Assembly: GCA_034440235.1 (NCBI GenBank)
Contig: JAWXBR010000054.1
Span: 73,131-137,130, forward strand
Direction of reading: 5' to 3'
Length of the DNA stretch: 64,000 bases
Source: a bacterium
GTDB lineage: Bacteria > Bacteroidota > Ignavibacteria > Kapaibacteriales > Kapaibacteriaceae
The notes beneath the pieces were generated by a model. That model saw only the letters and a list, made by a program, of their open reading frames with translations, had not been told where the DNA came from and searched no databases. The stretch's first letter is position 1; the number at the start of each line of letters is the position of its first letter. Made by a program: the position numbers and the translations under genes. Shown piece by piece: positions 2,215 through 64,000 of this stretch.

Positions 2215-3279
2215 ATGACCGACAGCATTGTTGAGGCACTAGGCGACAAAGCCGATTACTTTCTGAATCATCAATGCACGACCATTCCCCGAGAGCAGAT
2301 TCACCTGCCTTCGGGGAATGCTGTGCAGCGTCTGTACGGTCCAACAGACCGTAACAACCGCGTACTCTCGAACCTTCAGCGTATACTTTCGACTGGCAGG
2401 CTTGGCAACACGGGTTACGTTTCTATTCTCCCGGTCGATCAAGGCATAGAGCATAGTGCAGGGGCGAGCTTTGCCAAGAACCCGGCGTACTTCGATCCTG
2501 AGAACATTGTAACGCTTGCTCTTGAAGGGGGCTGCAACGCTGTCGCGTCCACCTTCGGTGTCCTCGGCTCCGTTGCACGGAACTATGCACATCGCATTCC
2601 CTTTATCGTCAAGCTCAATCACAATCAGTTGCTTACGTACCCAAATACGTTCGACCAGATCATGTTCGGAACAGTAGAGCAGGCGTTTGATATGGGCGCA
2701 GCGGCCGTCGGTGCTACCATCTACTTCGGCTCTGAAGAAAGTGGACGTCAGATTGTAGAAGTAAGCGAAGCATTTGCTCTGGCTCACGAGCTCGGAATGG
2801 CAACCATACTGTGGTGTTATCTGCGAAACTCGGCGTTCAAGAAAGACAAAGATTACCATGTTGCGGCAGATCTGACCGGACAAGCCAATCATCTTGGTGT
2901 AACGCTTGGCGCAGACATCATCAAGCAGAAGCTCCCAGAAAATAACGGCGGCTTTGAAGCGCTAAACATGGGAGGCTCTAGCTACGGCAAACTCGACAAA
3001 CGCATGTACACAGAATTGGCAACCGATCATCCGATCGATCTCACACGATACCAAGTTGCGAACTGCTATATGGGTCGCATCGGACTTATCAACTCAGGTG
3101 GCGCTTCTGGAGAAAACGATTTCAGCGAAGCAATAACCACTGCAGTGATAAACAAACGTGCCGGCGGCATGGGTCTAATCAGCGGACGCAAGGCCTTTCA
3201 GCGTCCGATGCCGGAAGGTATCAAGCTCCTAAATGCAATTCAGGACGTTTACCTTAGCGACGCTGTGACGGTGGCCTAA
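2215..3279 (+). CDS. fbaB: Class I fructose-bisphosphate aldolase (DhnA/FbaB type)
   Basis: Near full-length similarity, recalled from memory, to E. coli FbaB ([54 protein letters not shown]). ATG is at 2215. Confidence 0.85.
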
Positions 3280-5048: not shown

Positions 5049-5110
5049 TTTTATAGTGAGCTCGTTATTGCTCTTTGTTTAGAGAAAAACTTATTGCCTG
5101 ATTGCTACGC

Positions 5111-6472
5111 ATGAATGTACACGAGAACATCCTAAGTCTGATTGGCAACACACCACTTGTGCGCCTTAACTCGATAACGCGTGGTGTTAGTGCACCCATT
5201 TACGTCAAGCTCGAAAGTCGCAATCCTGGCGGTAGCGTTAAAGACCGAATAGGCATTGCCATGCTCGAGGCAGCAGAACGCGACGGCCGCATCAAGCCAG
5301 GCGCGTTAATCATAGAGCCCACAAGTGGCAACACTGGAATTGGTCTTGCTCTCGCATCGCGGCTAAAAGGCTATAGCTGTCTGTTCGTGATGACCGATAA
5401 GGCGTCTCAGGAGCGTGTGCGTTATCTGAAGGCGTTAGGAGCTGACGTATTGATTGTTTCGAGTGCTGCAAAGATGACGTCACCAGAGTACTACTGGAAT
5501 ACTGCCAAACGATTAAGCGAAGAGCTGCCAAACGCCATCATGCTTAACCAGTATGACAATCCCGCTAACCCCGACATTCACGAGGCTACGACGGGTCCGG
5601 AAATCTGGCGCGACACCGATGGCACCATCACCCATTACATTGGCAGCATCGGCACAGGTGGCACGATCAGTGGGGTCGGACGCTTTCTGAAGAAGAAAGA
5701 CAAAAACATTAAGGTCATCGCTGCCGATCCGATGGGCTCGTCTATTAAGACATTCAAAGACACCGGACGCCTTGTTGAAGCACTCCCCTACCTGATCGAG
5801 GGTGTAGGCCAGGAACGCATTCCGGGCAATCTCGACCTAACTGTAATAGATGAGATTATAAACATTTCAGATAAAGATGCCTTTATCACAGCTCGTGCAT
5901 TGGCGCGCGAAGAAGGCATTTTCTGTGGTGGGTCTTCAGGAATGATTATTGCGTGCGCATTGCGTGTTGCCAAGCTACTTCCTGCAGACGCATGTGTTGT
6001 GGCAACGGTATGTGATACTGGCGAGCGATACCTTACCAAGCATCACAACGACGAGTGGTTGAAAGAAAATGACCTTCTTGACAAAGATCGTTTTATGATG
6101 CGTGACGTACTTGCAGCAAAGCGCACTCGTGGTACGTTGCCCGCTCTCGTGCATGTAACACCCGATGGTACGTTACAAGATGCGTTGTCGTTAATGCAAT
6201 CACACGAAGTAAGCGACATGCCTGTAATCGACGGCGATGAATTAGTCGGCACTGCACGCGAAAACAAGCTCATGTCGGCAGTGATCGAGAATCGCCAGGC
6301 ATTAACGCGCACCGTTCGCGAATTCATGGAAGCACCAGCCCCAATTATAGATGCGCACGCAGATATATCGAAAGGCATAGGCCTACTGCGCAACGTCCCA
6401 ATGATCGTGGTCTCGGAGTTCGGACGTCTCAGCGGCGTCATCACACGACACGACGTATTAGAGTACCTCTAG
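5111..6472 (+). CDS. Cystathionine beta-synthase / cysteine synthase family PLP enzyme with C-terminal CBS-domain pair
   Basis: PLP lysine motif SVKDRIG, glycine-rich GTGGT loop, and a C-terminal tandem CBS region. ATG at 5111; the track start at 5102 is TTG. Confidence 0.75.
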   Translation: MNVHENILSLIGNTPLVRLNSITRGVSAPIYVKLESRNPGGSVKDRIGIAMLEAAERDGRIKPGALIIEPTSGNTGIGLALASRLKGYSCLFVMTDKASQERVRYLKALGADVLIVSSAAKMTSPEYYWNTAKRLSEELPNAIMLNQYDNPANPDIHEATTGPEIWRDTDGTITHYIGSIGTGGTISGVGRFLKKKDKNIKVIAADPMGSSIKTFKDTGRLVEALPYLIEGVGQERIPGNLDLTVIDEIINISDKDAFITARALAREEGIFCGGSSGMIIACALRVAKLLPADACVVATVCDTGERYLTKHHNDEWLKENDLLDKDRFMMRDVLAAKRTRGTLPALVHVTPDGTLQDALSLMQSHEVSDMPVIDGDELVGTARENKLMSAVIENRQALTRTVREFMEAPAPIIDAHADISKGIGLLRNVPMIVVSEFGRLSGVITRHDVLEYL

Positions 6473-6550
6473 GCATCATCACACGACACGACGTACTAGA
6501 GTACCTCTAGGCGTCATCAAAAGACACGACGTTCTAGGGCATCTCTAAGC
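6436..6550. repeat. Three degenerate tandem copies (~38 bp) of the 3' end of the CBS-enzyme gene, including its stop codon
   Basis: CGTCATCACACGACACGACGTATTAGAGTACCTCTAG, CATCATCACACGACACGACGTACTAGAGTACCTCTAGG and CGTCATCAAAAGACACGACGTTCTAGGGCATCTCTAAGC, read directly. Confidence 0.8.
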
Positions 6551-6579
6551 GCGTAGAGCCAACGCTTCTTTTACCGGAA

Positions 6580-7398
6580 CTAGCTCTTCTTCCAGTCGGT
6601 GAAATCTACTGCGTCTTCACCGCCGTCAACGCCAAGCACCTCACCGTTTATCCAGTGTGCTTCGTCGCGCACGAGAAGGCGAATTACATCCGCAACATCT
6701 TCTGGTGTTGTTAACCTGTGATACGGATTTCGCATATGGGCGTTGTCCATGATATCTGCGTTGCCCGGAATTTTAGCGAGCGCCGGAGTATAGGTAACGC
6801 CTGCACGAATAGTATTCGCAGTAATACTGTAAGGGGCCAGCTCGAGAGCGAGCTGACGGCAGTATGACTCCATTGCAGCCTTGGCTGCAGAAACGGCGCC
6901 GTACGACGGAAGAACGCGTGTAGAGCCAGCGCTCGTTAGGCCCAGGATGCGTCCACCCGGCGCCATCAGTCCATGCCGAACCAGGTCCTGCGTGTAGTAC
7001 ACCAAACTGTTTGCCATAACATCCATTGTCATCTCAAGACTCTTTAGCGAGATCGTATCAACGCCCGGGGGCGCCACAAATGGCTTGAGTGTACCAAAAG
7101 CTAACGAGTGCAGCATCAGTCGAATCGTAGCGCCCTCGTGCTTGCTAAACTCTTCCTTGATCGCAGCCATGATCTCGGCGCGACGCTCAGCGTCTACTGC
7201 ATTCACATTAAAGAAATGGTGGCGAACTCCGAGGGTCGAAAGTTCGGCCTTTATTTCATCGACGAGCTTTAGACCAGCAGCGCGGTCTAGGTGAACACCA
7301 AAAATGTGATAGCCTTCGCGGGCGAGGGCAAGTACGGTCGCGCGGCCAAAGCCACTCGATGCACCGAGGATAAGAGCGTAACGATTCTGTGATGTCAT
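6580..7398 (-). CDS. SDR-family oxidoreductase (possibly FabL-like enoyl-ACP reductase)
   Basis: Rossmann motif LILGASSGFGRA and the S...YxxxK catalytic pattern (SYGAVSAAK). Start set at the ATG of MTSQNRYA, since the track start is GTG. Confidence 0.6.
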   Translation of the reverse strand: MTSQNRYALILGASSGFGRATVLALAREGYHIFGVHLDRAAGLKLVDEIKAELSTLGVRHHFFNVNAVDAERRAEIMAAIKEEFSKHEGATIRLMLHSLAFGTLKPFVAPPGVDTISLKSLEMTMDVMANSLVYYTQDLVRHGLMAPGGRILGLTSAGSTRVLPSYGAVSAAKAAMESYCRQLALELAPYSITANTIRAGVTYTPALAKIPGNADIMDNAHMRNPYHRLTTPEDVADVIRLLVRDEAHWINGEVLGVDGGEDAVDFTDWKKS

Positions 7399-7435
7399 GG
7401 GCGCAAAGTTAGGAAACACACTGCGCTGGCAAGCA

Positions 7436-8125
7436 TTACTCTCGGATAAAGATCTCGTAGGACCGCTGCGGACCGCCTATCTGCTCGGATAAGGCGTTAA
7501 AACTCCGCTCTCTTATGAGCATGCCGTCTATCATAAATTTCACCTCTACAGTCCGATACGAGCCGCCGCTCTCCTGTGCCCTACAGCCCGTTCCATGTGT
7601 CGAGCCTCCGAAAACATTGCCGTCGAACTGAATGTTCACCTCGCAGCCCCTTCTGCGCCTTAACCCTACAACATCAATCATAAAGTTTTTGCCTCCGATT
7701 CCTATGCCCCTAAGGTCGGTCAGGTCGTATTTATCATTGTCGGGCAGATCGAACTCCACAAGTTCAATCATGCCTTCTTCAACACGCTTAATTCGCCAGA
7801 TACACCTGAATTTCCACATAGATGTATCGGTCGCAAGGCGTTCTTCGACAAAAAACCTACTGCTGTCGTTGCTTATATCAATGAACTGTGTGATGTGCAA
7901 ACGGTTCACAGAGATCGAGGTGTCCTTCTCCGCCTGAAGTTTGTTTGAGAACGAACCCTGCACCCACTTATAGAGTTTTAATACGGTCTCGTCAGTTGCA
8001 TGCAAAACACAAACAGAAAACATGAGTGCGATAACGATCGCAATCGAACGTAAGAACGCAGACTTGATGATAGCGATGATAGTGATGATACCCTTCATTG
8101 AAATCGTGTGTCGTTGAACATTCAT
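7436..8125 (-). CDS. CpcT/CpeT-like (DUF1001) family protein with N-terminal signal/TM segment
   Basis: The motif LYKWVQGSFSNKLQA fits the W..G.F.N..QA hallmark of the CpcT/CpeT lyase family as I recall it. Hydrophobic N-terminus. ATGA overlap with the mutL stop. Confidence 0.45.
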   Translation of the reverse strand: MNVQRHTISMKGIITIIAIIKSAFLRSIAIVIALMFSVCVLHATDETVLKLYKWVQGSFSNKLQAEKDTSISVNRLHITQFIDISNDSSRFFVEERLATDTSMWKFRCIWRIKRVEEGMIELVEFDLPDNDKYDLTDLRGIGIGGKNFMIDVVGLRRRRGCEVNIQFDGNVFGGSTHGTGCRAQESGGSYRTVEVKFMIDGMLIRERSFNALSEQIGGPQRSYEIFIRE

Positions 8126-9945
8126 TGAAATCGTTTCGATAGTTCGTCATACGAGATGATGATGTAGACGGGTTGACCTCGTGGAGTTGTGTGCGGCACC
8201 GCCGTAGCAAACAACTCTCGTACGATCGATGCGGCCTCATCTGGCTGCACGGTGTCGGCTGCTCGCATTGCCTGACGTGCTGCATAGATGGCCACCACGC
8301 CATCGCGACGACGCTCGGCAGGAAGACGTCCGCTCTCCTCTAGCGATTGCAGCATCTCATCGAGCACGTGCTCTTCACTGCCTGCACGTACATCTCCGGG
8401 TACGGCGTGTACGTCGACTGTGCCGTTGGTTTGCACTTCGAGACGAAAGCCCAACGATTCGAACTCGCGTAAATGTTCCCGCAACAAGGCTGCTCGCGAG
8501 GGCATAAGAGAAAGCGTAACCGAAAAAAGTAATGCTTGTGCTGTTACAGCTTCGTCGGGAGATCTGCGCATCAGGCGTTCGTACAAAATGCGCTCATACG
8601 CTGCACGCTGATCGATAACAACGATGCCTTCTGCCGACGAAGTAACGAGGTAGTGTCCACCGAGCTGCAGCACCGACGACGCAACGACCTCGCCGTGACT
8701 CTTGCTGAACAACTGAGACAGGTTCTGTCGTTCTACCGACGTCATCCCCTGTTGCGTATGCACGAACCCAGATTGTCCGAACGGCTGCCCATACGCTGGT
8801 TTGTAGACTCCCGCACCACCCACGCCAAGCTCACCTGGCATAATCTCGCCAGTAAACCGGTTTACAACCAGAGCTGTACCGCGATCGGGTGTCTGAAGTG
8901 ATTGAAGGGGCTGAGCAGCAAGGGGCGCGTTGCCAATAAACGAGGGAATGACGTTCGCCTTTTGCAATGCTGCTGCCACACTCATCTGCACGAGAAGGTA
9001 CACGGCATGTTCGTTCTCGAACTTCACTTCGTGTTTTTGAGGATGGACGTTTACATCGACTGCATTCGGATCGATTGTGATGTGCAATACAAACACTGGA
9101 TGCTGTCCCTGGTCGAGTAGGTGCTCGTGTGCAGTGTTGACTGCATGTGCCAAGGGTCTACTAACGATGGCACGTCCGTTCAGGAAGAGAAACTGACCGC
9201 TTCGGCTTTGCCGTGCGGTTGAAGGAATGCCAAGAAACCCTCTTATTTGAATTCCAGCCTCTTCGCTCTCTACCAAAAGCAACATACGCGATGGATCTAG
9301 TGCAAGCACATTCGCAGCACGCCGCTGCAATGTTGTTGGCTGCAGGTCGAAGACGATAACACTGCCGTCGTAGAATGTAAAACGGACGTCCGGACGCGAC
9401 AATGCCATGCGCTGCATGGTCTCGCTGATGTGACGAAACTCTGTCAGGTCTGACTTAAGAAATTTCTTGCGCGCCGGAATGTTGTAAAAAAGGTTACGAA
9501 CGTATACTTGTGTTCCACTGTCGCATGTGCATGGTTGGATATCGGGAACGCTTCCCGGAGTCGATCTGAGCATCCAGCCCGTGTCGTCTGTTGCACGACG
9601 CGTGCGAATTTCAATATCCGCAACGGCTGCGATCGAAGCCAGTGCTTCTCCCCTGAAACCAAGTGTTCGAATGGAATGCAGGTCGGCTTGCGACGAAATT
9701 TTACTCGTTGCATGACGAACCGTTGCAAGCGTTAGATCTTCTTTGCTTAATCCGCTGCCATTGTCGAGTATATGAATGAGGCTCTTACCTGCGTCGCGTA
9801 CGATAGCGGTGACATGTGTTGCACCCGCATCCACAGCATTCTCAACGAGCTCCTTTACAACAGATTCGGGTCGCTGCACTACCTCGCCTGCAGCAATCTG
9901 ATTGGCTAGGTAGTCTGGCAGGAGATGAATGGTCGTGGGCTGCAT
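8122..9945 (-). CDS. mutL: DNA mismatch repair protein MutL
   Basis: N-terminal GHKL motifs (NQIAAGEVVQRP, ELVENAVDAGAT, DNGSGL), full length with a C-terminal dimerisation region. Confidence 0.9.
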   Translation of the reverse strand: MQPTTIHLLPDYLANQIAAGEVVQRPESVVKELVENAVDAGATHVTAIVRDAGKSLIHILDNGSGLSKEDLTLATVRHATSKISSQADLHSIRTLGFRGEALASIAAVADIEIRTRRATDDTGWMLRSTPGSVPDIQPCTCDSGTQVYVRNLFYNIPARKKFLKSDLTEFRHISETMQRMALSRPDVRFTFYDGSVIVFDLQPTTLQRRAANVLALDPSRMLLLVESEEAGIQIRGFLGIPSTARQSRSGQFLFLNGRAIVSRPLAHAVNTAHEHLLDQGQHPVFVLHITIDPNAVDVNVHPQKHEVKFENEHAVYLLVQMSVAAALQKANVIPSFIGNAPLAAQPLQSLQTPDRGTALVVNRFTGEIMPGELGVGGAGVYKPAYGQPFGQSGFVHTQQGMTSVERQNLSQLFSKSHGEVVASSVLQLGGHYLVTSSAEGIVVIDQRAAYERILYERLMRRSPDEAVTAQALLFSVTLSLMPSRAALLREHLREFESLGFRLEVQTNGTVDVHAVPGDVRAGSEEHVLDEMLQSLEESGRLPAERRRDGVVAIYAARQAMRAADTVQPDEAASIVRELFATAVPHTTPRGQPVYIIISYDELSKRFQ

Positions 9946-9985
9946 TAACGCAAAGTTATCACCGCATTCGTAGGTTGCTGTACAG

Positions 9986-11161
9986 ATGCCCGACTTCTCC
10001 TTCCTTTCCGACTTCTCCTTCCCTTTAGTATATCAACTGCTCATCACCGCTGTACTCTGCGCGCTAACAGCAACCGGAGCCTGGAATATCTGGCGCATGA
10101 AGCGCCTTGGCGGTAGCAGCCCCTTACCGATTGGCAGCAGCAGCCCATTTCCGATTGATGGACGCCATATTTCGGTGTTAGTGCCAGCGCGAAACGAAGA
10201 GCGCTGTATTGAGGCATGTGTTCGTTCGTTGTGTTTGCAGACGTATCTGAACGCAGAGGTGATTGTTCTTGACGACGGGTCTACAGATGCGACGCCATCG
10301 ATCCTCCGTGGTCTGCAACTAGAGTTTCCAACATTGAAGGTTATCTGTGGTACTCCGCTGCCTACAGGATGGGTTGGCAAATCGTGGGCGTGCCACCAAC
10401 TTTCGCTGGTTGCAACTGGCGATGTATTGTTGTTCACAGATGCCGACACAGTACACGAAAAAGAGTGTCTTGCGGCAACGGCTGAGTTTGTCAGAGATGA
10501 GGACGTCGAATTTTTCTCTGTTGTGCCATTTGAAATCATGGGCTCGTTTGCAGAGCATGTCGTGATTCCGATGATTCATGTGCTGTTTATGTGTTCGGTG
10601 CCTACTGGATTGGGTAAGAACAAGGGTAGAAATCCTGCTGCCGCAGCGAACGGACAGTTCATGTGTTTTACTCGTGCAGGTTACGAAAAGGCTGGAGGTC
10701 ATGTTGGGGTGCACGATTCCATGGTCGAAGATCTGTTTCTTGCCAAGAATGCAAAACGAGCTGGCTTGCGAATGATCATGATCGATGCCACACATTTAGT
10801 ATCGTGTCGGATGTACGAGAATGCACGTGACGTAATCGACGGATTTTCAAAAAACTTTTTTCCAGCAACGAACTACAATCTTCTTTCTACCGCGTTTTTT
10901 ATGATGCACGTAGTTACGGCATACATCGTCCCCGTCTTCTTCTGGTTAGAAGGCTGGTACGCACTGACCGTTATACAGCTCAGCGCAGCAGCTTGTATTC
11001 GACTAATGATTGCGTTGAAATTTCGAATGCCGCTATGGCATGTGTTCCTGCAGCCAATCACGGCCACATATGCCGTGTTCATTGGCATGAACTCGATACG
11101 ATGGTCGTATTCGAAGCAAGGACTTCGTTGGAAAGGTCGGTCGTATTCAAAAGGAGAGTGA
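9986..11161 (+). CDS. Family 2 glycosyltransferase (membrane-associated)
   Basis: GT-A motifs (SVLVPARNEE, VIVLDDGSTD, DAD) and C-terminal TM helices. An 18-bp direct repeat lies at the 5' end. Confidence 0.75.
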   Translation: MPDFSFLSDFSFPLVYQLLITAVLCALTATGAWNIWRMKRLGGSSPLPIGSSSPFPIDGRHISVLVPARNEERCIEACVRSLCLQTYLNAEVIVLDDGSTDATPSILRGLQLEFPTLKVICGTPLPTGWVGKSWACHQLSLVATGDVLLFTDADTVHEKECLAATAEFVRDEDVEFFSVVPFEIMGSFAEHVVIPMIHVLFMCSVPTGLGKNKGRNPAAAANGQFMCFTRAGYEKAGGHVGVHDSMVEDLFLAKNAKRAGLRMIMIDATHLVSCRMYENARDVIDGFSKNFFPATNYNLLSTAFFMMHVVTAYIVPVFFWLEGWYALTVIQLSAAACIRLMIALKFRMPLWHVFLQPITATYAVFIGMNSIRWSYSKQGLRWKGRSYSKGE

Positions 11162-11162
11162 T

Positions 11163-11564
11163 GTGCAAAAAGCTTCAGCGATAGAACAGATACGCGATCT
11201 CTTCTTGCTTCGGATGCGCGAGCCAGAGGGCGCAGAACATCCGTATTACACAACCGGCTCGATTATCGGCGCAGCGTTGTTGCGCGTTGCCATTATAGCA
11301 GTTCTGTTAATGGTTTTTAACGAGCGTTACGGTTCGACGAGTTGGTGGTGGACTATTGCGCTTTTTTCTCTTTGGGGCATTGGAGCCTACCCTGCCTGGG
11401 TGCAATACCGGCGATTTAACGAGTCAGTCGAGAAGATTACAGAAGGAACATTATGCGGATCGTGCAGACACTTTAATCCTACAAATCAGTTGTGCATGAT
11501 ACTCGACGAACACGTAACAAGCGATCTACCACCGTGTGAAGGCGAGGCGTGGGAACCTAAATAG
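11163..11564 (+). CDS. Small membrane protein, hypothetical (translationally coupled to the glycosyltransferase)
   Basis: 2 TM helices and a C-terminal CxxC...C motif. Start uncertain (GTG). Confidence 0.4.
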   Translation: MQKASAIEQIRDLFLLRMREPEGAEHPYYTTGSIIGAALLRVAIIAVLLMVFNERYGSTSWWWTIALFSLWGIGAYPAWVQYRRFNESVEKITEGTLCGSCRHFNPTNQLCMILDEHVTSDLPPCEGEAWEPK

Positions 11565-11606
11565 CATCCCGATGTGCATCTATTTCAAAGTATCGTAAGC
11601 AAGTAG

Positions 11607-52418: not shown

Positions 52419-52491
<73 letters not shown>

Positions 52492-52508
52492 CTTCGAAAA
52501 AATCTAAG

Positions 52509-53793: not shown

Positions 53794-55194
53794 CTATTTC
53801 GTTTGTGTTTGTAACCACTTTAATATTTCATTTAAAGCTGTCGGTGAGAAAGTCTGTTCAATTGTCGCATATTCTTCTGGTGAACCTGTTTTACATTCTT
53901 GAAACAAGTGATTTAAATTTGGTAATTCTATTATTGTTACTTTTTTATTTCCACCTTTTGTCAATGCTTTTTCTATTGCTTCCAAATTTTCTTTTGGTGG
54001 CACTTGTAAATCTTTTTCTCCATTGATTGCTAAAACTGGGCATTTCACTTTTTCCAAAGCTGGTGCAGGATTATACTTTATAAAATATTGCATCCAAGGA
54101 TTAGCAATTTGTTTGACTTGTAATTTTACAAAATCTTCATCGCTCATTCCTTGTGGTTTTTTAGAATTTGGATTGTCTTTTAATGACTGCATAATGTAGA
54201 TAGTCAAGTCATTATTTAATTGTTCTAGATTTATTGATTTGTTTGCAATATCAAATGTTTTTCTATTCTCAATTTCATTTTTTTGTAAATCTTCCTCGCT
54301 AATTCCTGATGCTTTTCCAATTAATTTTTGTTGTAGTAAAAGTATTTGGTCGCCTTCAATTCCTGTACCTGCCAATAAAACTATAAATGCTACATCTTTT
54401 GATTTACTAGCAACCATTGGTGCAATCAATCCGCCTTCACTATGTCCAATCAAACCAATTTTCTTTTTATTTATTTCTTTCCTTGTCTTCAAATATGAAA
54501 TTGCACTTTCTACATCTGTTGCAAAGTCGGCAGAAGTAGCAGTTTTAAAGTCACCCTTTGATAATGCTGTTCCTCGGTCATCATAACGTAAAACTGCAAT
54601 TCCATTTTTTGTTAAATAGTCAGATAAAACAAGGAATGGTTTGTGTCCTAATAATTCTTCATCTCTGTTTTGTGGACCACTTCCACTTATTAATATCACA
54701 ACAGGAAACACACCGTCTTTTTTGGGTAATGTCAATGTTCCTGCTAAACTAATTCCGGCATTTTTATTTTCAAAAGTTATGTCTTCTGAATAGTAAGAAT
54801 ATGGTTTTGTTGGTTCTTGCGGTCTTACAAGTTTTTCTTTTTCAATAACTTCGTTTGATAAATTCATTGGAAAGGATTGTCCACCTTGTTTGAACGTCCC
54901 AACTATAATGTTGTCTTTACCCAATGTTCCTTCATATTCAATTTTTGCATTTGCAATTGTGATTTTTAAAATTGAATTTTCAAAACTTGTAGTTGTCGTA
55001 GGAATTCCTTTTGCTCCTTGGTCTGGACTGTCCATTGTTGAACTTACACCATTGTCTGTTTTGGTGATATTGAACACAAGTCTCATTTGTGTTCCTTGAA
55101 CTTTTAATGCTCCATTCCATTGTCCTATAATATCTTGTCCAAAAACGGTCAAAGAGAAAAGACTTGTCAATAATATTAATGTTATTTTTTTCAT
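53794..55194 (-). CDS. Secreted alpha/beta hydrolase (dienelactone hydrolase/S9-like), very AT-rich
   Basis: Signal peptide MKKITLILLTSLFSLTVFGQ, nucleophile elbow GHSEGG, oxyanion ILISGSG. Codon usage is markedly AT-rich, unlike the host core. Confidence 0.7.
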   Translation of the reverse strand: MKKITLILLTSLFSLTVFGQDIIGQWNGALKVQGTQMRLVFNITKTDNGVSSTMDSPDQGAKGIPTTTTSFENSILKITIANAKIEYEGTLGKDNIIVGTFKQGGQSFPMNLSNEVIEKEKLVRPQEPTKPYSYYSEDITFENKNAGISLAGTLTLPKKDGVFPVVILISGSGPQNRDEELLGHKPFLVLSDYLTKNGIAVLRYDDRGTALSKGDFKTATSADFATDVESAISYLKTRKEINKKKIGLIGHSEGGLIAPMVASKSKDVAFIVLLAGTGIEGDQILLLQQKLIGKASGISEEDLQKNEIENRKTFDIANKSINLEQLNNDLTIYIMQSLKDNPNSKKPQGMSDEDFVKLQVKQIANPWMQYFIKYNPAPALEKVKCPVLAINGEKDLQVPPKENLEAIEKALTKGGNKKVTIIELPNLNHLFQECKTGSPEEYATIEQTFSPTALNEILKWLQTQTK

Positions 55195-55195
55195 T

Positions 55196-55534
55196 TTAAA
55201 GTGATTTTAAGTATTGGGATATTGTGTAAATAATGGCCAGAACAGCAACTAATGCAACTATCGAAATTGGATTTGCAATATTTACTGTCCAACCTAAATA
55301 TTTATTCCGTTTAGGCGTAAAAATTCTTTTGTCGGATTTGTTGAAATAAAAAATTCCCCACTTCCAATATTTGGGGTCTTTGTGCCATTTTTCAAATGTT
55401 TCCTTTGTTGGTTTTTCTTCAGTTGTCATAATTCTATTTTTTATTTGTCGGTTTGGTAAAATTTCTGCTAACTCACTTATAATCGCAACATCTTCTCTCT
55501 TATACAACACATTTGTGTTGGATAAGCCTGACAA
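55196..55534 (-). CDS. Small membrane protein, hypothetical (coupled to the hydrolase)
   Basis: C-terminal TM helix, AT-rich. Probable true start is at MTTEEKPTK. Confidence 0.35.
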   Translation of the reverse strand: MSGLSNTNVLYKREDVAIISELAEILPNRQIKNRIMTTEEKPTKETFEKWHKDPKYWKWGIFYFNKSDKRIFTPKRNKYLGWTVNIANPISIVALVAVLAIIYTISQYLKSL

Positions 55535-55819: not shown

Positions 55820-56230
55820 ATGAAGACCGAAGCAATCGTTGTCAATGGCACGTTGGATCGTGTAGAACAACGCAGTACGGAAGTGGTACAGAAGACAGGT
55901 CGTCGCACGTTTAGTGCGGAATACATCAAAGCAATTCTGCAAGAGCTTGATACATGCAAGCACGGAGAGTCGGGCAGAATTCTACGGCGCGAGGGATTGT
56001 ACAGTAAGCAGGTTGCTCAGTGGAGGAAGCAACGCAACAGTGTCGTCGCTGTTCCGAAGCGCGGCCCGAAGGCAACGATGAGTCCTGATACGAAACAGGA
56101 GCTTGCACGGTTGACGCGTGAGAACGCCCGACTGCAGCGCAAGCTTGAGCACGCCGAGCTCATCATCGAGGTCCAAAAAAAAGTGTCGCAACTGCTGGGA
56201 GTAACCGAGTTACAGGACGAGGAGCGTTGA
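55820..56230 (+). CDS. IS3-family transposase OrfA
   Basis: Typical OrfA (RRTFSAEYIKAILQEL...LTRENARLQRKLEHAELIIEVQKK). Confidence 0.85.
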   Translation: MKTEAIVVNGTLDRVEQRSTEVVQKTGRRTFSAEYIKAILQELDTCKHGESGRILRREGLYSKQVAQWRKQRNSVVAVPKRGPKATMSPDTKQELARLTRENARLQRKLEHAELIIEVQKKVSQLLGVTELQDEER

Positions 56231-57241
56231 TGGACGAGATCACAACCCTTGGCCAACGCGTTGGCATCCGTCGGGCATGCAAGGAACTGGCTATGCCACG
56301 CACGACATACTATGCACGGCTCACACCACGCGTACAGACGGAGCGCAAACCACGACCGCGACCTGCACGTGCACTTAGCGAGGAAGAGAAAACACAAGCC
56401 ATCGAACTGCTCACGTGCGAACAGTACGTCGATCAATCTCCAGGCACGATCGTCGCAAGTATGCTGGACAAGGGTTCGTACCTCTGTAGTGAGCGTACCT
56501 TCTATCGTGTGCTTGCATTACTCACGCAGGCTCGTGATCGTCGGCGCACTGCACGGCATCCGGCGTACAGCAAACCCGAGCTCGTAGCACACGAACCCTG
56601 TGAGGTCTGGACGTGGGATATCACGAAGCTCAAGACTGCACAGAAAGGCGCGTACTACAACCTGTATGTCATGCTCGACATGTTCAGTCGCCGCCCTGGT
56701 CGTGGGCTGGCTGCTGGCCTACCGTGAACAGGAAGACCTGGCCTGTCTGTTGATCGATCAGGCGTGTGCACGCGAAGGCATTCTGCCCGAGCAGCTCACC
56801 ATTCATGCGGACAATGGATCCGTGATGCGATCGGGTGATGTGAGTGATCTGTACGTCAAACTCTGCATCACGAAAAGCCACTCACGACCGTACTGCTCCA
56901 ATGACAATCCGTACAGCGAGAGCCAGTTCAAAACCATGAAGTATTCACCTGCATTTCCTGAGCGCTTCGAAAGCATCGAACATGCTCGGGCATTCTGCAC
57001 GGAATTCTTCGACGCCTACAACTACCACATGTATCATTCAGGTCTGGCGATGCTCACGCCTGCAATGGTGCATCACGCAGAAGCCGACCTCGTCATTCGT
57101 AAGCGCCAGAAGGTGCTGACAACGGCATTCTCCGCACATCCTGAACGATTTGTCAACGGTAGTCCGAAGCACCACCTTGTGCCGGTGTCTGTCTGGGTTA
57201 ACAAACCTGTTGAAGATCCAAAAGAAGTGTTAAATTCTTGA
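56230..57241 (+). pseudogene. IS3-family transposase OrfB (DDE), interrupted by a frameshift near 56690-56700
   Basis: ORF 56227..56727 ends ...DMFSRRPGRGLAAGLP*. ORF 56600..57241 carries ...VVGWLLAY...IHADNGSVMRS...SNDNPYSESQFKTMKYS. The two halves of the conserved D-x-F-S-R-x-V-V-G-W region are in different frames. An extra nucleotide lies in a CCC run. Confidence 0.7.
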
Positions 57242-57327: not shown

Positions 57328-59826
57328 TTATACTAAATCTGCCACATGCCCATAGTATTCTTCAATAAATCTGCTTAGTGTAGCATTTTCATCGGAAGTC
57401 AGTGAGAGAGCCGTAAGTGCGCCGTTGTGAATTGCTTTTGCAACCGCTGACCCTATCATGTCACTAGCTTTGCTGTCGATATTATTTCTCGACACATCGG
57501 GGATAACCTTGCGTGAATGAATATTCGCAACAATTGAAACAATCTCAAATACCCCTGCCGTTATTGGGATCCGATATTTGAAATCCTTTATGAGGACGTT
57601 TCTTATGAATAATTCCCACCTATTATCATCTGGCCTCCAGTAATGGTGTACGTTGTCATTAGTCTCGAAGGGGAGGTATAGCTCGTTTATTCGCCCTTCA
57701 AATAGTGATTTTGTTTTTTCAAACGCTCTTGTCGTGCATTCCTTCGAATGACCTAACGCCACCAAATCTGCGAACCCTAGATTGTCAAACAAGTAATCAC
57801 CCTTACTCAAGGTTTGAGTAATAAGTTGACTTTGATTTTCCTGTGGCACGATGATTGATATCCAAGTCATGTCACGGTCCATTTTCTCAATTACTTCTTC
57901 GACATCATTTTCGGTGAATTTCAACCCATTCAGGTAATCACGCTCCGTATCTCCATCTACTAGCGGTATAGCCAGATACTTGATTTCATTGCCGTTCAAG
58001 TAGTCTGATATTCTTAGACTTGAATAGTCATCTACTTCAACCAGTCCATCTTCATCGTCGTATCGGTAGAGGGTGCCATAAAAGTCAATTTCTTCAAACT
58101 TTGAAATAAAGCGACTCCGTCGCTTGATGAAAGCTAGCCCTTCAAAATCGATGAGATAATCACGAAGTTGAATTGGTACGAGGCTACCTTTCTCAGGTAC
58201 TGTACGCTCAATTGGATTTGATACCGGATGCACGACCTTCTCCATTCTGTCTATTAACTCAAATTCAATTCCATCGGTTATAAAGTATTTCATTAGGAAG
58301 GCTTTCACAGCTTGTACTTTGTGCTCAAACGCCTTAATGAACTCCGTGTAGCTTAAGATTACTTCAGTTCCGTCAAACTCAAGGTCTTCGACTTCTGTCA
58401 ATGAGGTCCACTCATTTCCACTTTCTAACTGTATCAGATACTTGTTGCGTGAACGGTAGTGCCTAGTTGCGACCATCACCTCACTTGACAGCATGAAGCA
58501 TGCAAGGAATCCGATGCCATAGTTACCAATTGGCTTATACTCGTGTTCTTTAAGAATAAACTCTCGCGATTTATAATACGAGACACCTATGTTGAGAAAA
58601 TGCTTTTTGATGATCGCCATCGACATTCCCGTGCCGTTATCTTTAACAATGGCTTGGTTTCTACTTTTATCGAGGATAACCTTAATTTTTGGACGGTATT
58701 CATCTTGTCCAAATTCGTAGCTCTGAGCCTCTATTTCCTGTCGTAGCTTACACGAATCGATCGAATTTTGAATCAATTCTCTTAAGCCTAGTGTCTTGTC
58801 TCCATAGATTTTCTCGCCCATTAATAAGGAACTGATTGCCTTGAATTCGAGCGTCATTCTGTAGTCCGAAAATGTGTAGCCGATTGGGGTAATGAACACG
58901 TCAGGCTTATCATTAAAGAATAGTGCGTATCGGTCTGCCATTCCCGCCACTAACTCGATTGCATCCGTGAATTCACTTTCTACCCAGCTTGCATAAACAA
59001 GGATTTTTCTATGAATGCCAGCACTATTTGACTCTCCATGAAAGACGATTCTTTTCTGTGACGTTGTGGGATTGACGACAATCTTCTTGTTATTTGATAT
59101 CGTGAAATTCTGTTTCCACTCTGCATTGCTAATCCCCTGAGGATCGATCAGTTTGTACAGACGATATGGCGTCCGATTACTATCAATATCTAGTATATCT
59201 GCGAGCCTAAGTATACATGCGACGTATTGTGAATTATATGGGTAATCACCTTTTACGCTATGCAGGTTCAACCTTTGACGTATCCAATCGAAGCCCTCGG
59301 TGTGTGATTCGCAGATCAGTGCTAGATCCACATTAAAGTCTATTGATGATAATCCGGGTATTGTAAATCTTCCTTTCAATACTTCGCGTATGTACTTAGC
59401 AGACAGAGATGCATGAATCATTCTCACATACTCTTGAAGCGCGATCGTTTCATCGCCGCTGCACAATGTCTTCATTGCCGAGTATTTCGCACTGCTATGA
59501 ACGAAAGCACCCGATTTGATGTCGTCAATATCGACTTGACTAACTGCCATACCGATGTCGTGCAAAAGCGCAGAGTAAATAAGTAAAGCAATTTCGAGGT
59601 CACTGAGCTTTGTGTAGTCTTCGACGATTTCGCTCATGTACTCGATCACCCTAAAAGAGTGACTTGTGTCGTGAAGTGTATAGTGGGGGAATACATGTGG
59701 AATTCGGGTGTTAAGGACATCCTTGATTTCATTGTAAACCTCCACTATATGCGGTGCAAAGGGACTACACACGCTAAGAAGATGCTTGAACAACGTTAAA
59801 TCTTGCAGTCCTTGTGTTGGGTTCAT
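57328..59826 (-). CDS. HD-domain phosphohydrolase fused to a GHKL (HATPase/Bergerat-fold) ATPase domain, with ~350-aa uncharacterised C-terminal region
   Basis: N-terminal HSFRVIEY...LLHDIGM gives the H...HD metal-binding pattern. Middle region has LRELIQNSIDS (N-box), VKDNGTGMS (G1) and IGNYGIGFLA (G2). No histidine-kinase H-box. GC lower than the core. Confidence 0.6.
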   Translation of the reverse strand: MNPTQGLQDLTLFKHLLSVCSPFAPHIVEVYNEIKDVLNTRIPHVFPHYTLHDTSHSFRVIEYMSEIVEDYTKLSDLEIALLIYSALLHDIGMAVSQVDIDDIKSGAFVHSSAKYSAMKTLCSGDETIALQEYVRMIHASLSAKYIREVLKGRFTIPGLSSIDFNVDLALICESHTEGFDWIRQRLNLHSVKGDYPYNSQYVACILRLADILDIDSNRTPYRLYKLIDPQGISNAEWKQNFTISNNKKIVVNPTTSQKRIVFHGESNSAGIHRKILVYASWVESEFTDAIELVAGMADRYALFFNDKPDVFITPIGYTFSDYRMTLEFKAISSLLMGEKIYGDKTLGLRELIQNSIDSCKLRQEIEAQSYEFGQDEYRPKIKVILDKSRNQAIVKDNGTGMSMAIIKKHFLNIGVSYYKSREFILKEHEYKPIGNYGIGFLACFMLSSEVMVATRHYRSRNKYLIQLESGNEWTSLTEVEDLEFDGTEVILSYTEFIKAFEHKVQAVKAFLMKYFITDGIEFELIDRMEKVVHPVSNPIERTVPEKGSLVPIQLRDYLIDFEGLAFIKRRSRFISKFEEIDFYGTLYRYDDEDGLVEVDDYSSLRISDYLNGNEIKYLAIPLVDGDTERDYLNGLKFTENDVEEVIEKMDRDMTWISIIVPQENQSQLITQTLSKGDYLFDNLGFADLVALGHSKECTTRAFEKTKSLFEGRINELYLPFETNDNVHHYWRPDDNRWELFIRNVLIKDFKYRIPITAGVFEIVSIVANIHSRKVIPDVSRNNIDSKASDMIGSAVAKAIHNGALTALSLTSDENATLSRFIEEYYGHVADLV

Positions 59827-59907
59827 AAATGAAATGTAAAACAGCCTGTGATGTGAAATAGATTCTTTGTCGTCGGCCTGTGTAGTCCTGAAATCGCCTT
59901 GGAGATA

Positions 59908-62574
59908 CTACCCAATTGCGGGTCGATCGACTGATATCGCTAGCTTGCGTTCCTCATCGATCCGACTCCGTGCTTTCTTGCATGCTTTCACAAACTCCTG
60001 AAGCTGGTCCATGTCGCGAAGAAAGTCACTAGGCGAAGGGCGGTGGACATTGGACGCTGTAGACATGGCATGACCCAGCATCCACTTCGAACAATTCGAC
60101 ATATTGATGTGAATTGTTTTGTATTGATCAGTGGTTACTTCAACCTCACGCAGACTCTGAGTTTTAATGTCACTTGAATGTCTTACAATCACTTTGTTCA
60201 GCAATACTTCTTCGATTGCTGTTTCCCAGGCCTCTCTGAGCAGACTATATGTGATAGCTGCCTTACAATCATATGCATTTTGATCATCGGTGTACAGCGC
60301 CTGGAACGACTTTAGGCGTTCCCTTAAGGATTCAATCCGATTCACGACTGGCATTGCATGCCAAGGAAGTCCTTTTTGACTCAAACCAACTACATAGCTT
60401 TGACAACTGACGGTCAGCGCATTGAATCCTACTTGCGTTGATTCCGCGTTTGACTGTAGGTCTAAGAGAAATGCTATATCGTGGGTAAAAATAATTACTT
60501 GGCGACGTTCAGCCTCACGCGCAAGCCTAGCAGCTACAGTCCTACGATAGCGATGATCGAGTGAACTAACCGGATCGTCTAGAATAATAGGACAAGAATG
60601 ATCTCCTGAGATTACCTCAGATAGAAAGCCAGCCAAAGCCACTACTCTTACTTCTCCCTCGCTAAGGACATTCGACAAATCTGGGTTTAGTCCACTTCTT
60701 ACACCGTCAAGTCCAAGTTTGTGATGGGTCTCACCTGCGACTCCGATTGGACGTATGTTTAGAGGAATTTGCTGCGCCCCGAGGGCTAAGAGTTCGGCTT
60801 GTATCATTTCGTTCAGGTTCGGCGTTAAGGCATCCTTAATGATACTCTTACCCTTCCTCGTAATCTGCGTCGTATCTAAAGCTGCAATGGCTTGGTCAAA
60901 ATTGTATTTTGCATGTAACGCGGTCTTGTATTTGAGAAAGCTGAGAAGGTTTGTGAAGTAGGATTGGCGCGCTGCAAGTTCCGCTTTCTCTAATTTGAGA
61001 CTCGCCATCTGTTCCGGTTGTGAATTCTTTTCAGCACTCACCGCATCCCTTTCCAGCGTATCAATTAGTTTGTCCAGTTCTATCGTTGGATTTGTAGAAA
61101 GCGTTTGAAATTCATTGACCACCTGCCGATCCAATTGTAACAATACTTGTGCGTGCCGAATGATAAGTTCATCTAGGTAGGTCTTGGTTGATTTAGCAGC
61201 AGTCGCGTTCAATTGCGTTATTTCGGCTATTGTATCATTGCAGGCTCCAGCCGCAGGATGCATAACAAGTTTATTCACAACCTCAATTACGGATTGAAGC
61301 AAAACCTCTGCGGCACGCAGCTTCACCTTGGTTTCTTGGTCCACAAATGTTCGAAAACGACTCAGGCGATCCTTCCCCTCTTCGTCCAGTAGCTGCATGC
61401 AGAAGACACACCTGCTCGCGTCACCAACAAACGGAAAATCCAGACTTGGGTATGCCTGGGCCACTGAGTATTCTTTTGCAGCTTGGTATAGCATTTCCCA
61501 AGCTGTCTGACCTGCACCACTTAATGGTTCATCATCCAGTCCTTCAATAGAAAGGATTTTTACAGCGTTCTCGGCTTCGTTGACTTGTACGACTAACAAA
61601 TTGTGCGCAGTTACTGCGTCATCGGAAAGATTGTGGACAAGCTCGAATACATAGTCGCGCAGATGTTTTATTCTTTGCACTAAACTGCGCGTAGACAGCA
61701 CTACCTTGGCAGGATCGTTCAATTCCGCCAGAGCAATCTGGTTCGCCACAGCAATCAATCGTTCCGAGTCAATCAGCGTCCAGTTCGCGAGGCTCGTTAG
61801 CTCATCCTCAGTCGTCGCGTGAGTGATCTCGTTCACAGACCGCCCAGTAGTTGTGTCCATCGCAATGTCAGAATACGAGGGCAATGAGGGATCCGGAGCC
61901 AGAGACCCCAACTGGGCTCTGAGCCAACTCATTAACCTCGCTAGTTCCTCAAAGACATGGGCGCCATATGGCAGATATATGATATCGTTCTTCTCATCGA
62001 CGATCACCCGCGCACATTTCGAATCGAATACTGTGACGTTCATAAGGATGTCTGGACTGGCGATACCGTCCTGCCATCGGTATTCTTTGTCCAAACCCTC
62101 ATCCTGGCAATAAACTATGGTTGCTGCCGCAGGCAACACCGAACCCTCGTCAAATATGTTCGGCAGAATAGTTTCTTTTGTGTCTCGGGCTCGACACGCT
62201 CGTTTGAGCACACGGGCATAGCCTGATTTGCCGGAACCGTTCTCACCATATATGACCGTCAATCCCGCGTGGCCAAATGGAATGAATGAACCGTCAGAAA
62301 TCATGTTAATGCTTCGAAGGTCCTTTAGTGCTTTGAGTGTTACGTTTGATCTGACAACAGGCGCGCCGGAGACCTGTCCCAAACTCACGCGAAGAGGAGG
62401 TACATTGATTGTGGCATAAGCACTTAGGCCATGCGCGTTCAATACCATGGACAAGAGGTCTTGTCTGTCATTATCCGTTAATTCGGAGAACGTGAGCAGG
62501 CGGCGAACGGCGTCACTCATCCATGCAGGAGTGTCTTCCGCTGCCCATTTGATTATCGAGTCCAATGCGCTCAA
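59908..62574 (-). CDS. PrrC/RloC-like ABC-type ATPase (AAA_13-like) with coiled-coil CxxC zinc hook and C-terminal putative nuclease region
   Basis: Walker A LTVIYGENGSGKSG (~aa 105-118). Long coiled-coil containing RCVFC (CxxC) at ~aa 390. ABC signature-like LSEGEVRVVALAGFL, Walker B CPIILDDPVSSLD, D/H-loop VIIFTHD. C-terminal ~200 aa with LLREAWETAIEE...VRH...H, the R-x3-E...H pattern recalled for PrrC/RloC anticodon nucleases. Confidence 0.55.
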   Translation of the reverse strand: MSALDSIIKWAAEDTPAWMSDAVRRLLTFSELTDNDRQDLLSMVLNAHGLSAYATINVPPLRVSLGQVSGAPVVRSNVTLKALKDLRSINMISDGSFIPFGHAGLTVIYGENGSGKSGYARVLKRACRARDTKETILPNIFDEGSVLPAAATIVYCQDEGLDKEYRWQDGIASPDILMNVTVFDSKCARVIVDEKNDIIYLPYGAHVFEELARLMSWLRAQLGSLAPDPSLPSYSDIAMDTTTGRSVNEITHATTEDELTSLANWTLIDSERLIAVANQIALAELNDPAKVVLSTRSLVQRIKHLRDYVFELVHNLSDDAVTAHNLLVVQVNEAENAVKILSIEGLDDEPLSGAGQTAWEMLYQAAKEYSVAQAYPSLDFPFVGDASRCVFCMQLLDEEGKDRLSRFRTFVDQETKVKLRAAEVLLQSVIEVVNKLVMHPAAGACNDTIAEITQLNATAAKSTKTYLDELIIRHAQVLLQLDRQVVNEFQTLSTNPTIELDKLIDTLERDAVSAEKNSQPEQMASLKLEKAELAARQSYFTNLLSFLKYKTALHAKYNFDQAIAALDTTQITRKGKSIIKDALTPNLNEMIQAELLALGAQQIPLNIRPIGVAGETHHKLGLDGVRSGLNPDLSNVLSEGEVRVVALAGFLSEVISGDHSCPIILDDPVSSLDHRYRRTVAARLAREAERRQVIIFTHDIAFLLDLQSNAESTQVGFNALTVSCQSYVVGLSQKGLPWHAMPVVNRIESLRERLKSFQALYTDDQNAYDCKAAITYSLLREAWETAIEEVLLNKVIVRHSSDIKTQSLREVEVTTDQYKTIHINMSNCSKWMLGHAMSTASNVHRPSPSDFLRDMDQLQEFVKACKKARSRIDEERKLAISVDRPAIG

Positions 62575-62993
62575 TGTGTGCCTACGATTAATGAACCTAA
62601 TTTGGGATTAAGTCTATAGACTGGAAACGTCGGACAAAAGTACCCCCTTCCACTAGTCCTCAAGATCAGTATCGTCTACATATTACGCCTGAACGCAGAG
62701 ATTTGACAGCATTCCTTGATGACGCTGATAAAGAAAGCGATCTCAGCGCCGACACATGTAACACGTACCAGATTCATAGAAACTTCGGACTTCAGGTCTT
62801 TGACCCTATTGATCATTACGACCTAGCTACTTTCGCTAGCTATTACGCAATGACAGCCTAAAACACAACGTATCGGAAAGTTACCGTGCTTTACGACAAT
62901 CAATTCAAGAGCCTAGTTGAGAATGCTTTAGACTTCCTAAATCGCTCGTTGATGGAGATTGAGGATTCACCTAAGTTGGAAAATCCGCCCAAT

Positions 62994-63137
62994 GTGAGCA
63001 ACGAATTCCGCCACAAAGTAAGCAATGAATTCCGCGTTAAAGTGAGCAATGAATTCCGCGTTAAAGTGAGCAATGAATTCCGCGTCAAAGTGAGCAGTGG
63101 ATTCCGCGTCAAAGTGAGCAGTGCATTTCGTAGACCA
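62994..63137. repeat. Six tandem copies of a 24-bp unit (minisatellite) upstream of the ATPase gene
   Basis: GTGAGCAATGAATTCCGCGTTAAA consensus. End copies are degenerate and each copy contains GAATTC. On the plus strand it encodes VSNEFRVK repeats fused to a non-repetitive 36-aa N-terminus (ORF 62886..63158). Confidence 0.8.
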
Positions 63138-63226
63138 GGCACGCAACGCTGCACGTGATACGATAGGAAGATTGGTTGACCGGATCAGCAGATTCCGAGA
63201 ACATCACGTTCAAAGAAAGGCTGATC

Positions 63227-64000
63227 ATGGCAAATACACCAATCGCAATGAGTAAACTCAAACAAGTACTGAAGCTGCACCTGCGCGGCAGGAGCAAGCT
63301 TCAGATCAGCACGATGACGGGCGTATCACGCAACACCGTCACGAAGTATATCGCCCACGTGCAGCATCTGGGTTTCACGCTCGAGGACCTGGAGCAGCAC
63401 AATGACCAAGCGCTGGAGCGTTTGTTCTGTCAGGAGCCGCCGCAGGAGATGGACGCACGTGTTGCCGTGCTGCACACGTTTATCCAGAGCAATGACAAGC
63501 GCTTGCGTAAGCGAGGCATGACGCAAGGCCGCTTGTACGAAGACTACACGCAGCAGCATCCTGATGGCTTCGGCAAGACAACGTTCTATCGCCACTATAA
63601 TCTGTGGAAGCCCAGAACAAAGCCGTCGATGCATCTGGAGCACAAGGCCGGTGACAAGATGTTTGTCGATTTCACGGGTCAGAAGATCCCGATGATCGAT
63701 CCGGACACGGGCCAATGCGTCGAAGCGGAATGCTTCGTTGCCATCCTGCCAGCCAGCCAGTACACCTACGTGGAAGCGGTGGCCTCACAGCGCGTCGAGG
63801 ACTTCATCGCATGCTGCGAGCGTGCGCTGCACTATTTCGGTGGTGCACCGGCTGCCATGGTACCGGACAATCTGAAATCCGCCGTGATCAAAACGCACCG
63901 CGATGAACCAACACTCAATGACAACTATGAAGCCTTTGCTGAGCACTACAGCATGGCTGTTGTCCCCGCCCGCTCACGCCGGCCGAAAGACAAAGCCCAC
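63227..64000 (+). CDS. istA: IS21-family transposase IstA (3' partial, runs off the window)
   Basis: N-terminal HTH (MSKLKQVLKLHLRGRSKLQISTMTGVSRNTVTKYI) and start of the DDE domain (FVDFTGQKIPMIDPDTGQ...AILPASQYTYVEA...MVPDNLKSAV). No stop before the window end. Confidence 0.8.
   Translation, partial: MANTPIAMSKLKQVLKLHLRGRSKLQISTMTGVSRNTVTKYIAHVQHLGFTLEDLEQHNDQALERLFCQEPPQEMDARVAVLHTFIQSNDKRLRKRGMTQGRLYEDYTQQHPDGFGKTTFYRHYNLWKPRTKPSMHLEHKAGDKMFVDFTGQKIPMIDPDTGQCVEAECFVAILPASQYTYVEAVASQRVEDFIACCERALHYFGGAPAAMVPDNLKSAVIKTHRDEPTLNDNYEAFAEHYSMAVVPARSRRPKDKAH

Follow-up and report, generated by a model that had tools for sequence, protein, structure and literature searches.

The stretch of DNA analysed here, called the window throughout, comprises 64,000 nucleotides of the assembly GCA_034440235.1 (contig JAWXBR010000054.1, positions 73,131 to 137,130 of the forward strand) from a bacterium of the Kapaibacteriaceae, phylum Bacteroidota. 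Two large genes lie side by side on its minus strand, between an insertion sequence (IS) of the IS3 family and another of the IS21 family, in an island of lowered guanine-plus-cytosine (GC) content that begins at an initiator tRNA gene. The upstream gene (59908..62574, with a TTG start) encodes an RloC-like zinc-hook ABC ATPase of 888 amino acids (aa) that belongs to the PADLOC PDC-S06 family; the downstream gene (57328..59826) encodes a protein of 832 aa in which an HD-CE domain is fused to an Hsp90-like GHKL ATPase, as matches in Pfam, NCBIfam and the PDB indicate. An original prediction, made from the letters of the window, had placed the two co-oriented genes 82 bp apart between the two IS elements and read them as a new two-gene anti-phage system. 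Their orientation and their position between IS3 and IS21 stand, the gap measures 81 nt, and an anti-phage role is plausible for each gene alone, and the joint system of the two is not supported.

The 888-aa protein has the split ABC head, the CxxC hook and the R-x3-E...H arrangement that had been described for it, and in an alignment of 17 homologues at 39-50% identity these motifs are invariant. They comprise, all on the minus strand, the Walker A motif GENGSGKS (residues 110-117; 62224..62247), the zinc-hook motif CVFC with both of its cysteines, C389 and C392 (61399..61410), and, within residues 637-699 (60478..60666), the ABC signature LSEGE (637-641), the Walker B motif IILDD (663-667), the D-loop SLD (671-673) and the H-loop histidine H698, followed in the C-terminal domain by R780, E784 and H835. 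CVFC is the sole CxxC of the protein; Walker A and the ABC signature enclose the insert in which it lies, close to the middle. Pfam returns AAA_13, the family expected, at an E-value of 1.5e-17 and over profile positions 255-589 only, together with SMC_N and AAA_21, and in the PDB the protein matches Rad50 and AriA only, in alignments that take in residues 637-699. In front of the head stands a conserved N-terminal domain of about 95 aa (62290..62574), which has W18, D21, A22, R24 and R25 invariant, is absent from canonical RloC and finds no match in Pfam; Walker A is found at residue 110 here as against about residue 31 in canonical RloC, and the domain may be a sensor or a partner-binding module. 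The nearest relatives of the protein come from Planctomycetota and Methylomirabilia, at 49% identity.

RloC is defined by its ABC motifs, an insert with a coiled coil and a CXXC zinc hook, and a C-domain triad of the form Arg-X3-Glu-X36-52-His (PMC2610378). All three patterns are present and invariant in the window ATPase, the insert being a putative coiled coil and the triad reading R780-x3-E784-x50-H835. When compared by hhalign with an RloC profile, built from proteins whose source annotation reads 'wobble nucleotide-excising tRNase', ATPase residues 384-742 align with RloC 250-622 at 97% probability (E = 1.1e-10), with CVFCMQ placed over CPFCQQ; the alignment covers the hook and the returning arm and ends before the RloC nuclease core. 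Judged by this alignment, the scaffold and hook are homologous to those of canonical RloC. The protein resembles RloC in its scaffold and probably also in how it functions. As a side observation, the TTG start codon of the gene (62572-62574, minus strand) has a parallel in rloC genes, which often use rare start codons, implying low expression of a toxic protein (PMC2610378).

The protein also has a place in an existing catalogue, although the original prediction had recognised no named system here. The PADLOC hidden Markov model (HMM) PDLC04891, which belongs to PDC-S06, matches it end to end at 2.2e-189 (ATPase residues 1-869 against positions 1-857 of 858), and the further PDC-S06 sub-models 04893, 04888 and 04892 match as well; the comparison with PADLOC considered HMM profile matches alone, without system rules. 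PDC systems are a set of 145 candidates nominated by their embedding in loci of the BREX, DISARM or type I restriction-modification kind. By these profile matches the ATPase is a further member of a family that is already catalogued as a single-gene candidate.

The ATPase's C-terminal domain (residues ~737-888; 59911..60366, minus strand) is all-alpha and the predicted effector of the protein, with R780, E784, R798, H835 and R845 invariant. In an AlphaFold2 (AF2) model of residues 706-888 (predicted local distance difference test, pLDDT, 78; predicted template modelling score, pTM, 0.71) it forms a four-helix bundle, R780 and E784 lying on the long second helix and H835 just past the third, and such a bundle, as modelled, is compatible with a HEPN fold. 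Several observations tell against reading it as an RloC-type nuclease. Comparison of C-domain profiles by hhalign gives 0.1% for the RloC nuclease, that is, no detectable homology; the AAA_13 profile of 713 positions is spanned by canonical RloC from 2 to 712, whereas the window ATPase ends at 589; shuffling the C-terminal 180 aa yields the R-x3-E...H pattern in 21% of cases; and the fold matches of the domain are non-specific, the best E-value in a Foldseek search of the model being 0.59, with nothing significant and with HEPN proteins among the top matches. The domain likewise gave no signal against single canonical RloC sequences and matched no HEPN profile, neither Pfam nor the PADLOC PrrC model matched the last 178 residues (711-888) at E up to 10, and the PDB holds no structure of RloC or PrrC for comparison. 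Because the bare pattern is so frequent in shuffles, the weight of the R-x3-E...H arrangement lies in its invariance across the ATPase family. The PrrC/RloC label first given to the protein fits the scaffold and calls for a qualification in the effector domain, whose place in the RloC/PrrC nuclease family its sequence does not establish.

The missing homology to the RloC/PrrC nuclease domain and to HEPN profiles, the chance rate of the motif and the choice of Rad50 and AriA as best PDB matches also favour a different account of the protein, namely that it is a Rad50- or SMC-like ATPase for tethering or sensing DNA, in which the C-domain serves protein interaction or regulation and an effector is supplied in trans. 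We consider this account improbable. R780, E784 and H835 stay invariant among homologues that share as little as 39-50% identity, and the SxWxxGH context of the histidine is invariant too and resembles the SWxxDGSH of RloC, with Gly instead of Ser before the His; several HEPN RNases occur among the fold matches; and no partner gene from which an effector might come is conserved in the family. A close relative, moreover, is embedded in a type I restriction-modification locus in the manner of PrrC.

This relative (P0137; 48% identity) lies between hsdM-hsdS and hsdR, the last represented by an HSDR_N gene, at 2554-11585 of its locus (L128), which also contains a toxin-antitoxin pair of the RHH/PIN type and a TumE-like gene. 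Another relative (P0136) stands beside MNT and Fic-like genes. Across the ATPase family, restriction-modification genes of types III and II are enriched among the neighbours, and full-length relatives occur on 174 plasmids; the context of the family supports a PrrC/RloC-like role. In the window itself, no hsd genes were found in the flanks examined, 50-64 kb, and the PrrC-type embedding in a type I restriction-modification locus is not seen here.

The 832-aa protein, referred to below as HD-GHKL, combines its two named domains as had been expected: in Pfam it matches HD-CE (PF24391) at 1e-53, HD at 4.5e-6 and HATPase_c_3 at 1.4e-10. The match to PF24391 reaches 183 bits against a cutoff of 27 and runs over profile positions 1-261 of 263. 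The HD-CE phosphohydrolase domain occupies residues 46-286 (58969..59691, minus strand), and in an alignment of homologues at 54-62% identity H52, H56, H89-D90, H138, H175 and D210 are invariant, so that, as far as these residues tell, the domain carries a complete set of metal ligands. The same alignment has motifs I-III of the GHKL/Bergerat ATPase domain (residues 335-516; 58279..58824, minus strand) invariant, namely E350/N354, D396-N-G-T-G400 within D396-x-G-x-G, and G434-N-Y-G-I-G439 within G434-x2-G-x-G. That this domain is of the MORC/Hsp90/MutL type rather than of the histidine-kinase type was correctly foreseen: besides HATPase_c_3 it matches NCBIfam HtpG at 1e-22 and the N-domains of Hsp90 and HtpG in the PDB at ~5e-15. 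The remaining half (residues 517-832; 57331..58278, minus strand) is probably an S5-fold transducer followed by a terminal helical region. Its structure model is of low confidence, which tells against leaning on this part of the interpretation. In the PDB, the HD-CE domain matches nothing but the uncharacterised HD hydrolase 2pq7, and that weakly.

The combination of HD and GHKL had been put forward as unrecognised, whereas thousands of proteins have this stable architecture, and it has a Pfam model of its own, HD-CE. More than 1,000 homologues (clustered at 90%) share the architecture; a search with the HD-CE region returns 2,738 clusters at 50% identity, nearly all of them of 800-900 aa with the HD domain N-terminal; and of the distant relatives sampled, 10/10 keep both HD-CE and HATPase_c_3. 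The nearest relatives belong to the Bacteroidota (62% identity), and the spread of the family is patchy: proteins from distant Bacteroidota genera are about 60% identical, and copies also turn up in Firmicutes, on plasmids and on viral contigs. Around the HD-GHKL genes lie genes for OLD, AriA, GajA-like, LmuB-like, PDC-S06, GmrSD, ResIII and SLFN-type helicase proteins, as well as transposases. PADLOC has no model for the protein or the family as a whole, its sole match being that of the HD domain to the HD region of RT_UG24 (E = 5e-9); a search of the literature found no description of an HD–GHKL defence protein, and the 2008 MORC/paraMORC survey contains no HD fusion. HD-GHKL is, in sum, a large, stable and uncharacterised family in defence-rich, variable neighbourhoods.

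Homologues of HD-GHKL are often named 'molecular chaperone HtpG' by their sources, and its best NCBIfam and PDB matches are the HtpG/Hsp90 N-domains. GGDEF, EAL and response-regulator genes are found among its neighbours too and weigh against a role in defence, as does the confinement of PADLOC matches to the HD of RT_UG24. These points would fit a housekeeping or signalling enzyme, for instance a paralogue of the Hsp90-like chaperones that carries a phosphohydrolase for nucleotides or second messengers and for which the defence context is incidental. We think this unlikely, since the HtpG model gives 80 bits against a cutoff of 371 and aligns over HtpG positions 15-198 alone, which is the N-domain and not a full-length chaperone; since the spread is patchy and includes Firmicutes, plasmid and viral-contig copies; since restriction-modification genes, defence ATPases and transposases abound in the variable neighbourhoods; and since the present copy lies between two IS elements at atypical GC.

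Whether the two genes form a conserved unit was examined in 41 genome loci of HD-GHKL and 80 metagenome loci of the ATPase, with flanks of up to 10 kb on each side, the partner being sought by tblastn and by family profiles. HD-GHKL was found in 0/80 of the ATPase loci by either method, and this negative is informative because 63 of these loci have at least 500 bp and 47 at least 1.5 kb of downstream DNA. It was found in none of 6 more ATPase loci either (3 + 3, from plasmids, viral contigs and long contigs), which brings the count to 0/86; six further plasmid and viral-contig loci lack the partner, and the three closest ATPase relatives on long contigs have no HD-GHKL beside them. From the other side, an ATPase of the same family adjoins HD-GHKL in 1/43 homologue loci, or 1/41 if the genome loci alone are counted (L010, from Terrimonas), at 23% identity and downstream rather than upstream of it. 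Clustering of all flanking open reading frames (ORFs) gave no conserved neighbour for either family, the maxima being 7/80 and 4/40. Conservation of the neighbourhood across genomes had been named beforehand as the check on the proposed system, with the absence of co-occurrence in other genomes or a match to an already named system as grounds for giving it up, and it is largely these that were found. Since the pair does not recur, the GC of its genes differs (0.477 in the ATPase gene, 0.415 in HD-GHKL) and their nearest relatives come from different phyla, it is not a conserved unit.

Two observations run counter to independence. The first is that a hook-bearing ABC ATPase immediately adjoins HD-GHKL, in the same orientation, in 5/42 loci including the window. 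The gaps in these loci measure 35-350 bp; beyond the window they are L010 (12557-15157), L014 (12806-15064), L009 (1-891) and L017 (7513-9957), where the ABC neighbours are canonical RloC in L014 and L009, a member of the window's family in L010 and a protein of the SMC_N/AAA_23 type in L017, lying on either side of the HD-GHKL gene. The second is that a scan of the 81-nt gap for promoters and terminators stayed at background level; as there is no terminator-like or promoter-like site in it, the two genes may be co-transcribed here. Both would suit a modular, two-layer form of cooperation, in which the RloC-like ATPase/nuclease guards or is regulated by HD-GHKL and partners are interchangeable between ABC subfamilies. 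Loose two-layer immunity of this kind would have the RloC-like protein as a suicide nuclease that monitors HD-GHKL, the first-line effector, as PrrC monitors EcoprrI, the restriction enzyme that restrains it, and sets a precedent for such coupling; swapping of partners would explain the 5/42 adjacency in either gene order. We nonetheless give both the cooperation and this guard arrangement a low probability, roughly one chance in eight. Seen from the ATPase side the count is 0/86; the ABC neighbours, on either side of HD-GHKL, come from three or more unrelated subfamilies; defence islands in general commonly contain ABC ATPases, and OLD, AriA and GajA-like genes are neighbours as well; GC and donor lineage differ between the two genes; and a frequency of about 10% matches that of the commonest unrelated neighbour clusters. 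The adjacency is read as defence-island clustering and leaves room for a loose functional link. The failure of the two-gene claim saves effort that would otherwise go into a non-recurring pair.

The surroundings of the two genes bear out the mobile, horizontally acquired setting that had been proposed, with two IS families and a low-GC mosaic. The IS3-family element (55820..57241, plus strand) is of the orfA/orfB type, and its orfB consists of two overlapping ORFs (56227-56727 and 56600-57241), a frameshift beyond the usual one between orfA and orfB; because of this extra frameshift the copy is probably inactive. On the other side, the left end of the IS21-family element (62991..64000, plus strand) is marked by 24-nt tandem repeats and an istA-like ORF, which runs from 63227 to the end of the window and has rve and HTH matches. 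The 24-nt unit is present in five to six tandem copies at 62991-63134, just upstream of the istA-like ORF, and these copies are probably the multiple terminal repeats of the IS21 end. ORFs with a 'VSNEFRVK' repeat at 62886-63158 (plus strand) and 62900-63154 (minus strand) are artefacts of the same repeats. A composite transposon was considered and ruled out, in that the IS3 and IS21 families differ, the IS3 copy is frameshifted and bracketing repeats are absent; no direct or inverted repeats of at least 16 nt that bracket the two genes were found.

The lower-GC island does begin where it had been placed, at tRNA-fMet. The gene at the boundary of the drop is a tRNA-Met(CAT) of the initiator type (52419..52492, plus strand), recognised by its C1×U72 mismatch and by the GGG/CCC anticodon stem, three G-C pairs closing the stem; no repeat copy of its 3' end lies downstream within the window. 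Beyond it the GC content drops to 0.32-0.48, from 0.51 before. Two genes at 53794-55534 (minus strand), one for an alpha/beta-hydrolase (466 aa) and one of the DUF5808 type, have a GC of 0.32 and a GC content at third codon positions (GC3) of 0.19, as compared with about 0.51 for the genome, and represent either DNA that a low-GC donor passed on very recently or a chimeric assembly of the metagenome-assembled genome (MAG). The GC of 0.32 in these neighbours of the pair (53.8-55.5 kb) makes a patchwork of the island.

The account that we favour, with somewhat better than even confidence, is that of a mosaic beside tRNA-fMet in which two independent, separately acquired single-gene defence candidates have come to lie side by side. 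What the data show is how the genes are built, their domains and conserved motifs, the homology of the ATPase scaffold to RloC, the non-recurrence of the pair and the variable, defence-rich surroundings; the enzymatic activities, the triggers and the defence phenotype of both genes are what we infer, and that is a point to be set against this account. The first of the two genes would be a divergent RloC-type protein with a split ABC head, a putative coiled-coil insert that bears the zinc-hook CxxC at its tip, an N-terminal domain specific to the family and a four-helix C-terminal domain as predicted effector. In this protein, dimers formed through the hook could hold the effector silent until a phage cue, DNA damage or the loss of a partner restriction system brings about an ATP-dependent change in the head that frees the C-domain. 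Through R780, E784 and H835 the C-domain might then cleave RNA without a metal, anticodon loops of tRNA being the likeliest target, whereupon translation would stop and the infection be aborted. In HD-GHKL, GHKL and S5 together may form a dimeric, ATP-driven clamp, comparable to those of MutL, MORC, Hsp90 and VcSduA, that senses or holds a nucleic-acid or protein ligand and gates the N-terminal HD domain, the putative effector. Nuclease activity on invading nucleic acid would be the favoured function of this effector, with nucleotide hydrolysis as the alternative.

Set against known systems, the ATPase shares with RloC the ABC motifs, a hook insert of the form CxFCxQ, a triad spacing (x50) inside the x36-52 of RloC, the rare start codon and the single-gene organisation, and differs from it by the extra N-terminal domain. 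Mutants of RloC in the hook are hyperactive. From PrrC it differs in that the PADLOC PrrC model matches it in the Walker B region only, and resembles it through the close relative that is embedded in a type I restriction-modification locus. PDC-S06, into which it falls, is a single-gene catalogue entry and a candidate rather than a characterised system, and has 13 sub-models with several different C-terminal domains; only 3 of the 13 share that of the window ATPase. A sub-family that keeps the RloC hook scaffold and the triad pattern, with a C-domain too divergent to recognise, bears on how effectors diversify on a conserved sensor scaffold.

The interest of the region lies mainly in the HD-GHKL family, which is large (2,738 clusters, as above), laterally mobile and found in defence-rich neighbourhoods. 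The UG24 reverse transcriptases (class 3 UG/Abi), predicted to act in defence, have an HD phosphohydrolase that is proposed as their effector and is related to that of HD-GHKL; the likeness is confined to the HD domain, and in UG24 a reverse transcriptase/primase module takes the place of the GHKL ATPase as regulator. The nearest precedents for its function are VcSduA (Shedu type I-D), whose role in defence is validated and whose GHKL domain is fused to a nuclease, and paraMORC3, in which GHKL and S5 are fused to a nuclease and which is described as stand-alone and laterally mobile. HD-GHKL shares with these two and with MutL an intact GHKL domain of the Hsp90/MutL type, a probable S5 region, a fused, predicted hydrolytic effector and the character of a gene that stands alone, moves laterally and keeps no conserved neighbourhood. 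It differs from all three in that its putative effector is the N-terminal HD-CE domain and not a C-terminal nuclease of the PD-(D/E)xK or RE fold, and the DUF4263 PD-(D/E)xK domain of Shedu type I-D gave neither a Pfam nor a PADLOC match in it. HD-GHKL is an uncharacterised variation on the gating of a nuclease by a GHKL domain. Whatever the answer to the question of coupling, HD-CE–GHKL would, if the reading is true, be a new defence family of single proteins, very widespread and with an HD effector gated by ATP, and if it protects against phage, the GHKL clamp that gates a nuclease in MutL, paraMORC and VcSduA would extend to an HD effector.

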